From an uncultured Sphingomonas sp. (GTDB lineage Bacteria; Pseudomonadota; Alphaproteobacteria; Sphingomonadales; Sphingomonadaceae): 64,000 nt of DNA. The DNA is taken from contig NZ_CADCVZ010000008.1 in assembly GCF_902806265.1 (NCBI RefSeq), positions 3,209 to 67,208 on the forward strand, given 5' to 3'. The notes beneath the pieces are model-generated. The model ran no database searches. It worked only from the letters and a program-made list of their open reading frames with translations, and had not been told where the DNA came from. Positions 39,120-44,013 of this stretch are shown here, piece after piece. Position 1 is the stretch's first letter. The number at the start of each line of letters is the position of its first letter. The position numbers and the translations under genes are program-made.

Positions 39120-40934
39120 TTACCCGAGCGACAACTCGTGCAGCTCGCTCACCAGCCGCCACTCGCCGAGGTCCGCGAGCATGACCCGCGCCGCCTGCTC
39201 GGTGAGGTCGGCGGCGCGGGGGAGGTCGGAGGTGCCGCGGAGATCACGGGCGATCCGGTCGAGCAGCGCTGCCGTATGCCGCGCGCGGTTGGCCGCCGCG
39301 CGGTAGTCGCCCTGCACCCGGATGCCGAAAATGGCGGTGCCGAGCGCCGGCAGCCCGGCCGAAAGGACCGTTGTCCAATTGCCGGCCCGCCCAATCAGCT
39401 CCGGCGCGAACTCCAGCGCGGCGATGGTCAGGAACGTCAGCAGAAGCGTCGCGATGAACAGCGCGAGGCCGACATGCTCCAGCCGGCCGTCGAGCCGCTC
39501 GGCCTGGGTCGCCGCGGCACGATTGTAGGCGATCTGCGGCTGCAGCTCGCGCTCGGCGATCGCGGCGGCGAGCGTGGGCAGGTCCTCCCTCCGCATCCGG
39601 CCTGCGGGACAGCCGACGGTCCGCCACATGGCCGCCGAGTACCAGTCGATCCACCGTCCGGCGATCGGCTCGGCGGCGGTGCCTGGCGGATCGGGCGCGG
39701 CGATGCCCAGCAGCTTGAGGCTGCGCATCGGCCGCAGCCGCTCGGCCAGTTGGCGGTAGTCGAGCCAGCGCTGGTGCCAGCAGCGGCGCGAGCCGGTAAT
39801 GGTGTTCACCACCACCACCAGCACGACCAGGAACTCGGCCAGCGCGAGCAGTGCCGGATCGGCATGCAGCACCAGCCCGGACAGGCCGAGCCACACCCCG
39901 AGCGCCGCCAGCAGGAAGTTGAGCACATGGCTGCTGCGATAGATCTGGGCGAAATGGGTCGCCAGCCGGTCGCTCCAGCCGTAAGCCGCCTCCAGCATGT
40001 CGAACGACGCCGACACGCCATGGCAGCCGACGCAGGTCTCGCGGTAGGCGTGCCATTCGGCCTGGTCCGCAGCGATCTGGGAGCGCGCGCTCAAGTCCCT
40101 GCGCGACAGGGCGCGAGTTCCCGTAAGCGCCATCAGCAGCGGATACTCCAGCCGCCAGCGCAGCAGCCGCTGGGTTTCGGCAAGGAAGCCGCGGGCGAAC
40201 CGCCGCTCGGAGTCGACTGCGGGAGGAGCGAGCATCGCCTCCAGGATCGTCCGCAGGGCCTCGGGCGTGGCCGGCCGGCCGCACGCTCGATCTCCCGGGA
40301 GGGTGACGACCACCGGATCGAAGGCGCTCCACAGGAGTGTGGCCGGCGCGGTGCCGTCCGGCGGGATGTGGAGAATGGGCGTGCCGCGGGTCAGCGCCAG
40401 CTCGACGGTCTCGGCCGTGCCCCCGCGGCCGCGTGCGGGAAGCCCGTCCCACACGGCGATGAGCAGGTCGCAGTGGGCCACCGTCGCGCGCCCGGCCATG
40501 ACATAGGCATCGATTGGGGAAGCCGGATCGCCTGGCAGTTCGAGCACGCAGCGGGAGCGTGCGAGCAATTGTTGAAGCCGGTCCGCGGCTTCGGGCTCGA
40601 GCCGAGCGCAGTCGTCGCTCGGCAAGGGCAATACGGCCTGCAGCTCCCAGCCTTGCTCTACGGCGAGCAAGGCCGCCATCTGGTCTGCCCCGCCGGCCAA
40701 GGGGGAGACCAGGGTGAAGCAGGGCGGGTCATGGGCGAACACCTCGCGCTCGCGCTCCAGGATGACGAGCGCCCCCTTGCGCAAGGCGTCGAGCGCTTGT
40801 CCGATCCGGACGGCAAGTTGGTCAAGGGCGTCGCCCGTCGGCAGCGCCTCGCTGCGGTGCCCGGTGATCCCGACAGTCAGGGAGAAAGGGGGGCGCGGAG
40901 GCCCAAGGCCGGCAGCTCCCCCACCCTCCCCCAT
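39120..40934 (-). CDS. SLOG domain fused to two SLATT/DUF4231-like 2TM modules
   Basis: N-terminal VGITGHR, VSPLAGGADQ, LIAVWDG..GRGGTAETV; TM pair followed by W.DYRQLAERLR; second TM pair and terminal DLGEWR. Confidence 0.8.
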   Translation of the reverse strand: MGEGGGAAGLGPPRPPFSLTVGITGHRSEALPTGDALDQLAVRIGQALDALRKGALVILEREREVFAHDPPCFTLVSPLAGGADQMAALLAVEQGWELQAVLPLPSDDCARLEPEAADRLQQLLARSRCVLELPGDPASPIDAYVMAGRATVAHCDLLIAVWDGLPARGRGGTAETVELALTRGTPILHIPPDGTAPATLLWSAFDPVVVTLPGDRACGRPATPEALRTILEAMLAPPAVDSERRFARGFLAETQRLLRWRLEYPLLMALTGTRALSRRDLSARSQIAADQAEWHAYRETCVGCHGVSASFDMLEAAYGWSDRLATHFAQIYRSSHVLNFLLAALGVWLGLSGLVLHADPALLALAEFLVVLVVVVNTITGSRRCWHQRWLDYRQLAERLRPMRSLKLLGIAAPDPPGTAAEPIAGRWIDWYSAAMWRTVGCPAGRMRREDLPTLAAAIAERELQPQIAYNRAAATQAERLDGRLEHVGLALFIATLLLTFLTIAALEFAPELIGRAGNWTTVLSAGLPALGTAIFGIRVQGDYRAAANRARHTAALLDRIARDLRGTSDLPRAADLTEQAARVMLADLGEWRLVSELHELSLG

Positions 40935-40937
40935 GCT

Positions 40938-41393
40938 TCAGGCGATGTTCTTGATGATAGGATCGCACTCGTAAGTGGACTTGTCCTCGCCATCGAAGAA
41001 CAGGGAATAGGTATAAACCCCTTTGGTGCCGGGGTTTTCTACATCAAGGGAACGGCCGGCTATCGTGGAATCATCGACTTGAGCAGGCCAGTCCTTCGCG
41101 CGGTCTACTGGGCACTCAAGTCCCTCTTGCACACTAAATGGGGTTGAACTGAACCTCAGGTCTAGCCCCGTGTCATCGATAAGCCTGAAGCGTATGATCC
41201 CTCGTCGGCCGGCTTTTGTAATGATCGCGTGAGCGTTCACCTTCTCACCCGGCTTTTTGTCGTCGACGGCTCCGCCTAACGCGAACAACACCGTATCGAG
41301 ATCCCGATCCCAGATTGCGTGTACGTTCACCTTGACCTTTAGTGGCACCAGCGTTTCGGCTTGAGTTTCGTCGCCAAACATTGCCTGATCCAT
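40938..41393 (-). CDS. Small beta-rich protein ending DPIIKN (paralog B)
   Basis: gggaga SD 5 nt before ATG 41393; 151 aa; shares motifs with paralog A. Confidence 0.8.
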   Translation of the reverse strand: MDQAMFGDETQAETLVPLKVKVNVHAIWDRDLDTVLFALGGAVDDKKPGEKVNAHAIITKAGRRGIIRFRLIDDTGLDLRFSSTPFSVQEGLECPVDRAKDWPAQVDDSTIAGRSLDVENPGTKGVYTYSLFFDGEDKSTYECDPIIKNIA

Positions 41394-41425
41394 GGTGCTC
41401 TCCCTGTTGATCGCTGCTGAGCCGA

Positions 41426-41839
41426 TCACAAGCCGTTCTTGATGATCGGGTCAAAGTGGAACGTGCCGCCGTCGCCCTCGAAGTTGAGGGCGTAGCCGAA
41501 CTCGCCATTCTGCGAATTGGTGTCGGTGATCGTGAGCTTCTTCCTGCCGAGTTGCCGGATCAGGAACTCGCCATCCGCGTCGCCCGGCTGGGTCGGGCAG
41601 GCCGATCCGTTCTGAAGCCAGATCGCCTCGCGCGGCGTTTCGGGAAATCGGAGGTTGCGGCCGGTCCGATCGTCGAGGTCGAAGGTGATATCGGCAGGTC
41701 CATCCGCCGTGATCTGAAGTACTTGGCCGTTCTTCCTGCCGCTTCCGGGCGGGACGAAGCGGCAGTCTCTGTCGTCCCAGTCGATCCCGCCGTTCCCGTC
41801 AGGTCTCGCCTTCAACGTGACCACCACCTTGGTTGGCAT
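41426..41839 (-). CDS. Small beta-rich protein ending DPIIKN (paralog A)
   Basis: ATG 2 nt after the TIR gene stop, G-rich SD; 137 aa; hidden at the end of ORF-track entry 41426-42391. Confidence 0.8.
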   Translation of the reverse strand: MPTKVVVTLKARPDGNGGIDWDDRDCRFVPPGSGRKNGQVLQITADGPADITFDLDDRTGRNLRFPETPREAIWLQNGSACPTQPGDADGEFLIRQLGRKKLTITDTNSQNGEFGYALNFEGDGGTFHFDPIIKNGL

Positions 41840-41841
41840 CG

Positions 41842-44013
41842 TCAGCCCCCCTGCTGCATGAACTTGGCGTAGAGCGGGTGCTGGTAGCCCAAGCCACCAA
41901 GGCGCGCCGCGATGCGCTGGGCCTCGCCAGTCTGCCCGACGCGGCTGAGCAACAGGGATCGCAGCGCGAGATCGTCGGGACTGGTGGCCGCTTCGGCCCG
42001 CCAGTTCTCCAGCGCCGTCTGCCAGGCGAGCGCCGCCTCCTGCCCGCGGGAAAGCATTTGCAGCGCATCCCCCGCCAACAGCCGCGCACGGGCCAAATCC
42101 GCTTGACCCCGCAAGGTGTTGTGGCGGGAAGCTTCGGCGTTCGCGACAGCTTCGTCCGCCTGGGTGAGTGCGTCGCCGGGCGCACCGCCGGCAAGCGCCA
42201 GCCGCGCCCGCGCCAGCAGGCATTGACGCCGCAAGGTCTCGCTCCAGCCCACCACGGTGCTGTCGCGGGCGATCAGGCGATCCACGATCCCGCAGCCGGC
42301 TTGCGCCGAGCCTGCGGCAGCGGCCAACTGGTCGTGCGACAGTTGCACTTCCGCTGCAACGAAGTAAGCGCGTGCCGCGCGCTCCGACCATTGCGAGTTG
42401 GCCGGGTCGGTAGCGAGAAGCTGTTTGGCAAGTTTCACTCCGGTATGGGCGTGCACGGAAGCTGACTCCGCCTGACCGGTTGTAAGATGCAGGCGAGCAA
42501 GAGCCGGCTCACCGGCCAGCCGCTTGAGCCGGAACTCCATGTCGTCGGGGAAAGCAGCCATCGCTCGTCCCGCAAGTCCGATCATTCTCTCCCTGGTCCG
42601 AACCGCTTCCCGAAGCCGTCCTGCGCCGGCCTGTGCGTCGGCGAGGTAGGCGAGCGACTCCAACCGCTGTTTCTGGTAGTCGCGGTTCTGAGGCTCGAGT
42701 GCGATCAGCCTCTCGAGCGGTGGGAGGGTGCCGGCGAACAGTCGGCCTGCCTCGGAGTACCGCTCATGGGCCTGGAGCAGAAGCACGCCAAGGTTGTGGT
42801 CGGCATAGATGCCTTCCATCAGATACTCGCGATTGGCGGGCGCCAGCGCGATCATGCGCTCCGTCATCCGCTTGTACTCGCGCCAGGCGCTCGCGGCCTC
42901 GGCGATCCGGCCTCGCTGCCAGGCGATCGAGCCGATGTAGAACAGGTTCTGCGAATGGTCGTACAAGCGCCGCGCATCGTCGGGATGGCGGCGGAGCAGC
43001 TCAAGGGTGGTCGCGCCTGCCTCCCGGTAGCGCCGCAACGCGCCGTCGAGGTCAGCCCGGCGCTGGGCGATGTCGCCCATCATCGTCAGTGCCCTAGCCC
43101 GCTGCGCCAAACCCTCGTCCGTGAGGGAGCGTTTGTCTTGCTCTTCATAATATTCGAGAGCCCGCACGCCGACCACGTCAAGCGCTTCGAGTTTGCCGAT
43201 CGGTTCGAGCCGGTCCCGTAGATCGCCCAGCATAAAGCCGATCAGCCCTTCGGCCTCTCGCCGCTGATGACGCGCTTCGTCGCGCGCCTGGACGGAGCTG
43301 ACCGCAAGGCCGGTGGCTGCCAGCATGCCGGCGATCGATGCCGCGCTGATCCCGACCATGCGGCGATGGCGATGGACCTCGTCGCGCCGAACCAGCTCGT
43401 CGAGTCGGAGGTCGAGCATGCCCGCGACGAGCTTGAGCAGCCCCCGTGCGCGCCCGTCCCCACCCGGGCGAAGGTCGACGGCGATCGGCTCCGCAGCCTC
43501 CCCGGTCGGCTCGCCTTCCTCGTCGAACTGCTCGCGCATCGCGGGTGGGAAGCATTCGTCGGCAGCGCGGTCAGCCAGCCGTGACGCCCAGGGCTCGCCG
43601 GCGACGATGACGGCGAGCACCTCGCCGTCAGGCCGCAGCCGTTTGAAGGTGCGTATCTCCTCGTCGACCCAGCGGCTTTTCGCAGCCGCCGGCGAGCACA
43701 GCACGATCAAGTGTCGCGAACATTCCAGCGCCTGCTCGATCTCTTCCGACAGGTCGTCCGCGGCGGCCAACTCGCTGCGGTCGCGAAAGATGGGGATCAG
43801 CCGTGCCGGAACCAGGAAGCGCTCCGCCCGCCGTCCGACCAGGGCTTTGGGCACCCGGAATCGCTCAAGCGCCCGGTGGAGCCGTTCGGCCTCGCTTGCA
43901 TCCGCGTGGCTGTAGCTGAGGAACGCCCAGTAGCGCTGAACAAAGGGCGCGCGAACGGGTCCTCGCCGAACTCCGGCGGCAACGCTGCGGGACAGGACGG
44001 CCGAGCCTTCCAT
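41842..44013 (-). CDS. TIR domain - transmembrane helix - TPR-like repeat protein
   Basis: AFLSYSH, IFRDR, LIVLCSP.AAKSRWVDEEI (TIR, Glu119); TM about residues 219-241 after RHRR; helical TPR-like C-terminal region. Confidence 0.9.
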   Translation of the reverse strand: MEGSAVLSRSVAAGVRRGPVRAPFVQRYWAFLSYSHADASEAERLHRALERFRVPKALVGRRAERFLVPARLIPIFRDRSELAAADDLSEEIEQALECSRHLIVLCSPAAAKSRWVDEEIRTFKRLRPDGEVLAVIVAGEPWASRLADRAADECFPPAMREQFDEEGEPTGEAAEPIAVDLRPGGDGRARGLLKLVAGMLDLRLDELVRRDEVHRHRRMVGISAASIAGMLAATGLAVSSVQARDEARHQRREAEGLIGFMLGDLRDRLEPIGKLEALDVVGVRALEYYEEQDKRSLTDEGLAQRARALTMMGDIAQRRADLDGALRRYREAGATTLELLRRHPDDARRLYDHSQNLFYIGSIAWQRGRIAEAASAWREYKRMTERMIALAPANREYLMEGIYADHNLGVLLLQAHERYSEAGRLFAGTLPPLERLIALEPQNRDYQKQRLESLAYLADAQAGAGRLREAVRTRERMIGLAGRAMAAFPDDMEFRLKRLAGEPALARLHLTTGQAESASVHAHTGVKLAKQLLATDPANSQWSERAARAYFVAAEVQLSHDQLAAAAGSAQAGCGIVDRLIARDSTVVGWSETLRRQCLLARARLALAGGAPGDALTQADEAVANAEASRHNTLRGQADLARARLLAGDALQMLSRGQEAALAWQTALENWRAEAATSPDDLALRSLLLSRVGQTGEAQRIAARLGGLGYQHPLYAKFMQQGG

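Follow-up and report, generated by a model that had tools for sequence, protein, structure and literature searches.

Why should the only TIR gene of a 2.3-Mb genome share an operon with the only gene of that genome for a SLOG domain fused to SLATT-type transmembrane (TM) helices? The question is raised by a 64,000-nucleotide (nt) stretch of DNA (hereafter the window) from an uncultured Sphingomonas sp. (NCBI RefSeq assembly GCF_902806265.1, contig NZ_CADCVZ010000008.1, positions 3,209 to 67,208 of the forward strand), in which the minus-strand open reading frame (ORF) at 39120–40934 encodes a SLOG-SLATT-SLATT protein of 604 amino acids (aa; P0001). Our answer is that this protein probably serves as effector in a Thoeris-like system of TIR signalling.

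The protein belongs to a large family, with more than 1,691 matches in a 90%-identity database and, at E ≤ 1e-30, 869 clusters at 50% identity, nearly all of about 600 aa; at E ≤ 0.001 the number of such clusters rises to 6,188, annotated merely as 'DUF4231'. Chance is ruled out as the source of the fusion, because the same ~600-aa architecture is conserved across this large homologue set. A spurious ORF or a pseudogene was considered and rejected, given the high conservation and the quality of the AlphaFold2 (AF2) model, which was built on 57 homologues and has a mean predicted local distance difference test (pLDDT) score of 92.3 and a predicted template modelling (pTM) score of 0.91. A sequence search of the PDB with the family profile gave no significant match. 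The deposited gene model (P0002, 554 aa) begins at residue 51, 50 residues late (window 40785–40934), so that its SLOG domain lacks both the first strand and the invariant loop GxTGHR; the homologues back the ATG at 40934 as the true start.

The AF2 model shows an alpha/beta domain (~18–195), a linker, a first hairpin, amphipathic helices, a second hairpin and C-terminal helices, in this order, and the whole protein faces the cytoplasm apart from two short loops. A sequence-only reading of the same DNA had placed a SLOG domain at aa 18–195, followed by a helical linker, a TM pair with W.DYRQLAERLR behind it, a second TM pair and a terminal DLGEW, and had seen no SIR2 or other enzymatic effector. 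All of this stands: the linker holds AF2 helices at 224–301, domain profile scans of the protein found no enzymatic domain, and the evidence for the remaining elements is given below.

The N-terminal domain has a SLOG fold. In Foldseek searches with the AF2 model, about 178 N-terminal columns align to DprA (3uqz), ShosA (8zva) and the LOG-family protein TM1055 (1rcu) with probabilities of 0.89–1.00, and in a viral library DprA-like, YspA SLOG and DUF2493 proteins are matched at a probability of 1.0 (TMt up to 0.80). The ranking of whole-protein Foldseek matches was discarded, since noise from the TM helices of ABC transporters dominates it, and only the high-probability local matches are meaningful. 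Four motifs are invariant in the 57 sequences, GxTGHR (22–27), AxGxD (80–84), WDG (162–164) and RGxGGT (168–173), and the first and last of them are glycine-rich loops, one after the first strand and the other in a GGxGT-like motif. By sequence profile, the Pfam family DNA_processg_A matches aa 73–193 below threshold (E 0.004; 16.9 bits, cut-off 29.6); across the family it matches 14 of the 57 members and YAcAr matches one. Above threshold, no profile of a named SLOG family was matched, nor a ThsA-specific one. Since all matches to named families are sub-threshold, the N-terminal domain looks like a separate SLOG subfamily at the level of sequence profiles. Members of this subfamily that consist of SLOG alone, without TM modules and reading GITGHR ... 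WDGLPARGxGGT, were also seen (L059 4980–5471, on pSCL4 of S. clavuligerus, and G003, G008, G010, G015, G019 and G031); some of their genes are second copies in genomes that also have the full-length gene.

The membrane part consists of two modules of unequal standing. The first is a bona fide SLATT domain, scoring 49.3 bits against NF033634 SLATT_1 (cut-off 41) and 26.3 bits against PF14015 DUF4231 (cut-off 24.7), profiles that match 55 and 57 of the 57 members, respectively. Its helices TM1 (~336–356) and TM2 (~360–383) agree with the AF2 helices at 312–352 and 360–383 and with a hydropathy segment at 336–383, and they carry three polar residues, the invariant N339 and E367 and also N377, which at least 90% of the sequences share. 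Behind this TM pair comes an amphipathic helix, WHxRWLDYRQLAERLR (AF2 short helices at 386–409), within which WLDYRQLAERLR at 390–401 is near-invariant in the homologue alignment. The second module holds TM3 (~487–509) and TM4 (~517–539), with AF2 helices at 449–509 and 511–542 and a hydropathy segment at 484–515; TM4 is a Gly/Ala-rich, almost invariant SAGLPAxGTAIFGIR (SAGLPALGTAIFGIR at 525–539). Two C-terminal helices span 544–603 and include DLGEW (588–592), conserved in the alignment of 57 homologues, with L589 and W592 invariant. Scanned alone, the second module matches SLATT_1 over profile positions 5–128 of 132 with E 4.3e-5 and 23.5 bits (cut-off 41), which makes it a probable SLATT unit. 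Neither BLASTP nor hhalign found any similarity between the two TM modules (hhalign probability 0.2%), so the tandem-SLATT reading rests on the separate SLATT_1 match of each. The earlier proposal of tandem SLATT-like modules thus stands firmly for the first module and as probable for the second. Viral SLATT proteins match the AF2 model in Foldseek with probabilities of 0.99–1.0, a match to the model that is not assigned to either module.

The evidence that carries a signalling role comes from gene neighbourhood. The operon of the window, on the minus strand, consists of a TIR-TM-TPR gene, two small paralogous genes (A and B) and the SLOG-SLATT gene in last place, with spacers of 2, 32 and 3 nt. 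The island genes were called by longest-ORF selection with hidden Markov models, as GC3-based gene calling missed them. A phylum-wide sample of 401 Pseudomonadota genomes was also searched. Homologues are sporadic in the phylum and were found in 14 of these genomes, or 13 when the genome of the window is left out. For 8 of these 13, the homologue has a TIR_2 match no more than 4 kb away, in varying order and orientation, and the chance expectation of such proximity is estimated at about 1% per genome (1–17 TIR genes in ~3 Mb). TIR genes adjoin the effector gene in Sphingomonadaceae loci as well, and the mobilizable Caballeronia plasmid pSBC2-4 groups a DUF4231 (SLOG-SLATT) gene with an adjacent TIR gene and a WD40 gene. 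A link between TIR signalling and SLOG-SLATT proteins is therefore strongly supported by gene neighbourhood.

The TIR domain of the window partner was identified by TIR_2 (E 5.6e-12) and ThsB_TIR (E 7.6e-10) in profile searches; the TPR assignment of its C-terminal part comes from faint TPR_2 Pfam matches in homologues only. Its residue E119, in SRWVDEEI, aligns with the Glu of WVRYE in BcThsB, and we take this residue to be the TIR catalytic glutamate. The equivalent is kept in all aligned partner TIRs but one, the TIR-FGE-sulfatase protein of L046, where a Glu is offset by one position. The partners themselves are diverse, namely TIR-TM-TPR proteins in several genomes, a TIR-TM-FGE-sulfatase protein, a SIR2-TIR protein beside an nSTAND1 NTPase and a short TIR-2TM protein. 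In most of them a TM helix comes right after the TIR domain and is followed by TPR or FGE-sulfatase modules, a Toll-like layout with the N-terminus inside and the C-terminus outside; the membrane-anchored set looked at comprised the window TIR and those of L001, L002, L012, L013, L022, L046, L048, L049, L050 and L056. The juxtamembrane block that separates the TIR domain from the TM helix is conserved (ECFPPALR...AEPIAADLR..GDGR...LLKLVAGMLG). The variety of sensor modules that go with partner TIRs (TPR, FGE-sulfatase, SIR2 with a STAND NTPase, WD40) speaks for a conflict system. Other neighbours in the sampled loci are a trypsin-like protease, PEP-CTERM proteins, a patatin and a TrkA_N-RyR protein. 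Homologues without a TIR gene nearby were observed beside a patatin-like phospholipase or a TrkA_N-RyR protein (L052 5033–6259, L053 and L051 4992–7130).

How such an effector may act is best read by analogy with the SLOG and SLATT domains of other systems, in which ligand gating and membrane permeabilisation have been proposed or found. The membrane-anchored TIR-TM-TPR protein would be triggered, possibly at the envelope, and would turn NAD+ into a signal derived from ADP-ribose (ADPR). The SLOG pocket, lined by the GxTGHR, AxGxD and RGxGGT loops, would bind this signal, as the SLOG domain of ThsA binds 3' cyclic ADPR (3'cADPR) (bioRxiv 10.64898/2025.12.03.692087). The linker and the conserved helices next to the membrane (WLDYRQLAERLR and DLGEW) might relay this binding, upon which the four TM helices would rearrange or oligomerise. 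Ions would then leak or the membrane would lose its integrity, and the infected cell would stop growing or die; a membrane breach or gating by SLATT is suggested here because the same has been proposed for the SLATT effectors of CBASS and for ThsH of type VII Thoeris.

Parts of this scheme have been anticipated. Associations of SLOG with SLATT were reportedly predicted by Burroughs et al. in 2015 in Nucleic Acids Research, the name SLATT being said to stand for 'SMODS and SLOG-associating 2TM effector'. SLATT was also predicted by the Aravind group to be a permeability effector regulated by ADP-ribose (ADPr) derivatives (PMC9503650). A recent preprint catalogues 29 putative Thoeris types (bioRxiv 10.64898/2025.12.03.692087); its Tables S1 and S2 list '4TM SLOG' or 'SLOG and 4TM' proteins as putative effectors beside TIR genes, and 'SLOG Patatin' is another putative TIR-linked effector there. 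Because 'SLOG and 4TM' is already listed in this way, the idea of nucleotide-gated permeabilisation is essentially the published prediction, and the window protein belongs to a known, unvalidated class, to which it is assigned by architecture and context, having likewise a SLOG domain and four TM helices and being encoded next to a TIR gene. Among seven reference TIRs, the one associated with the Nitrospira 4TM-SLOG protein is the best match of the window TIR (E 1.7e-5).

Compared with these and other known systems, the locus has features of its own. In the text and tables of the preprint the four TM helices are not called tandem SLATT, as they are read here. As a further difference from the '4TM SLOG' class, the TIR protein of the window is a 723-aa TIR-TM-TPR protein, and two genes of DP-EP fold separate its gene from that of the effector. 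The locus resembles type VII Thoeris, a validated system of TIR (ThsB) and SLATT (ThsH) that responds to cyclic ADPR (cADPR) (bioRxiv 10.64898/2025.12.03.692087), in that a TIR protein generating the signal is paired with a membrane effector of SLATT type; however, ThsH is described with a SLATT domain only and with ligand pockets predicted between SLATT protomers, whereas the window effector has a fused SLOG domain and a duplicated SLATT. It resembles ThsA of type I (SIR2-SLOG) in that the SLOG domain would be the receptor for a TIR-made ADPR derivative, but ThsA acts through a SIR2 NADase, while the output part of the window protein is four TM helices with no enzymatic domain. We found no earlier description in which the four TM helices are taken for two SLATT units, nor any of the predominance of membrane-anchored TIR partners, of the accessory genes of DP-EP fold, or of an allelic series of full, partial and empty states at one chromosomal site.

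Several points weigh against an effector of a Thoeris-like system. About one third of the homologues have no TIR gene nearby, and the second membrane module falls below the SLATT cut-off. Of 36 genomes in the genus, 29 have the gene, at the same site between ispG and an asparaginase gene, which makes it stabler than typical abortive-infection systems; its flanks are housekeeping genes (ispG, asparaginase, DNA ligase) with no defence genes among them, and PADLOC gave no system-level match at the locus. Finally, two 'SLOG and 4TM' systems, of Streptomyces sp. GKU 895 and Ca. Nitrospira nitrosa, are reported in the preprint to have given no defence in E. coli MG1655 (bioRxiv 10.64898/2025.12.03.692087). 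A membrane-anchored TIR partner may explain this silence of transplanted systems, and the locus of the window offers a compact native context, with one TIR gene, one effector, a 2.3-Mb genome and natural full, partial and empty alleles.

These observations bear first on the alternative that the protein is a physiological, reversible ion channel of four TM helices gated by its SLOG domain, with the partner acting as a Toll-like envelope sensor (TPR in the periplasm, TIR in the cytoplasm) that makes a messenger for envelope or ion homeostasis. TRPM2 is a channel that ADPR gates through a SLOG domain. The likeness of the window protein to it, in which a SLOG domain would likewise bind ADPR and control a membrane conductance, is an analogy only, as the TM domains are not homologous; TRPM structures are among its low-probability Foldseek matches. 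The near-core, syntenic position in the genus and the housekeeping flanks would suit such a channel, as would the lack of phage defence in the two systems above and the mostly membrane-anchored partner TIRs with modules of extracytoplasmic type; N339, E367 and N377 and the conserved, small-residue-rich TM4 also resemble a specific path for conduction or gating more than a blunt disruptor of membranes.

The population pattern argues otherwise. Within the genus, identities are 49–53% for TIR-TPR, 59–65% for SLOG-SLATT and 29–45% for the small proteins, compared with 85–95% for ispG and DNA ligase and 79–84% for asparaginase, so that the system evolves much faster than the genes that flank it. 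The site is empty in G013 (L062), with an ispG-asparaginase gap of about 1.6 kb, and partial in G021 (L061), which has the TIR-TPR gene and one DP-EP gene there but no SLOG-SLATT gene genome-wide; the next gene in G021 is a homologue of the S1-P1_nuclease-annotated gene that comes after the effector in L022. In a further locus (L021 2761–4538) the TIR-TPR gene is split into ORFs of 187 and 381 aa without a TIR domain, beside an intact effector gene, a possible case of sensor decay. Because fast divergence, a variable number of small genes and full, partial and empty site states are combined, the pattern is more in keeping with a conflict system long resident at one fixed site than with a housekeeping gene. 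The sporadic distribution in the phylum, including one plasmid, the STAND, WD40, trypsin and patatin neighbours, which are typical of conflict systems, and the fact that the characterised SLATT systems are all defensive also stand against the physiological channel, which we regard as the chief rival, though an unlikely one.

Between the TIR gene and the effector gene, the window and related loci hold one to three small paralogous genes (window 40938–41839; L001, L002, L003, L006, L021 and L022). The two small proteins of the window are paralogous to each other (E 9e-10), and for the AF2 model of protein A (pLDDT 85) Foldseek-type matches include SO1698, a self-cleaving DP-EP protein (E 2.5e-6, TM-score 0.65–0.73), as well as PixA and MakD. 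This assignment is one of fold, no Pfam or NCBIfam match having been obtained for the small proteins even at E ≤ 10. An Asp-Pro a few residues before the C-terminus is invariant in the small-protein family, and some paralogues have a C-terminal TM tail beyond it; because this tail lies C-terminal of the DP motif, cleavage at DP could free such proteins from the membrane. Over window 41001–42000, which covers both small genes, the GC content is 0.61, against about 0.70 around it, a dip that fits cassette turnover. Beside homologues outside Sphingomonadaceae no member of the small-protein family was found. PEP-CTERM proteins occupy the same position elsewhere, and their homology to the small proteins was considered and rejected, since only the PEP-CTERM tails match mutually. 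The two proteins of DP-EP fold in the window are putative, lineage-specific accessories. A composite picture would make the operon a bacterial Toll-like receptor pathway with a TRPM2-like output, in which a single-pass protein with a periplasmic TPR sensor and a cytoplasmic TIR would report an envelope event through an ADPR-derived messenger that opens a SLOG-gated double-SLATT channel, with self-cleaving DP-EP proteins as regulators; it would be kept vertically across the genus as a regulated membrane response that need not be lethal. We think this rather improbable.

It is also conceivable, though we have little faith in it, that the SLOG-SLATT protein works independently of TIR, as a sensor of other nucleotides or as a LOG-like, nucleotide-processing enzyme, the TIR protein being an NAD+-depleting co-effector. 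Homologues that stand alone among metabolic genes, or by patatin or TrkA_N-RyR genes with no TIR near, are in line with this, as is the existence of stand-alone SLOG proteins in the subfamily. RGxGGTAE also resembles the LOG motif, PGGxGTxEE, and E175 would presumably be the counterpart of the LOG catalytic Glu. Residue 175, however, is not conserved among the homologues, where it is E, D, H or Q, and this favours sensing over catalysis by the SLOG domain; moreover, the enrichment of TIR genes beside the family is far above the chance estimate, and the operon is tightly coupled. An intramolecular toxin-antitoxin, in which a DprA-like SLOG domain restrains SLATT toxins until proteolysis or a partner protein releases them without any small ligand, much as the DprA-like ShosA neutralises ShosT, is very improbable, for although a weak PADLOC match to ShosA joins the Foldseek match to 8zva, one locus has a trypsin-like protease gene between the TIR and SLOG-SLATT genes and the accessory proteins have a self-cleaving fold, the likeness to ShosA is at the level of the general DprA/SLOG fold only, the invariant glycine-rich loops argue for a pocket that takes a small molecule, and TIR linkage is the dominant signal.

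The effector of a Thoeris-like system thus remains the reading that we prefer, and the features of the locus are collected in Table 1.

Table 1. Features of the SLOG-SLATT locus, in window coordinates; aa ranges refer to the encoded protein.
Feature	Position	Strand	Details and basis
SLOG-SLATT-SLATT gene	39120..40934	-	604 aa; ORF, homologue alignment
SLOG domain (DprA/LOG-like Rossmannoid), aa 18-195	40350..40883	-	Foldseek, Pfam, alignment
Mostly helical linker, aa 196-311	40002..40349	-	AF2 secondary structure
SLATT module 1, aa 312-410	39705..40001	-	NF033634, PF14015, alignment, hydropathy, AF2
Cytosolic inter-module segment, aa 411-448	39591..39704	-	conserved PDPPG, W428/W431/Y432 (alignment)
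SLATT-like module 2, aa 449-604	39123..39590	-	SLATT_1 E 4.3e-5, alignment, hydropathy, AF2
Small paralogue B, 151 aa, DP-EP-like beta-sandwich	40938..41393	-	paralogy; ends CDPIIKNIA
Small paralogue A, 137 aa	41426..41839	-	AF2 match to SO1698 DP-EP; D130-P131 invariant
TIR-TM-TPR protein, 723 aa	41842..44013	-	TIR aa 31-138, TM ~219-241, helical-repeat C-terminal region

A different arrangement of the modules was observed in Halomonas (L020 795–12094), where a separate ORF of 226 aa that encodes SLATT only comes after the SLOG-SLATT gene. Upstream, this locus encodes a 1,740-aa nSTAND1-ankyrin protein, and a related ORF of 727 aa lies downstream.

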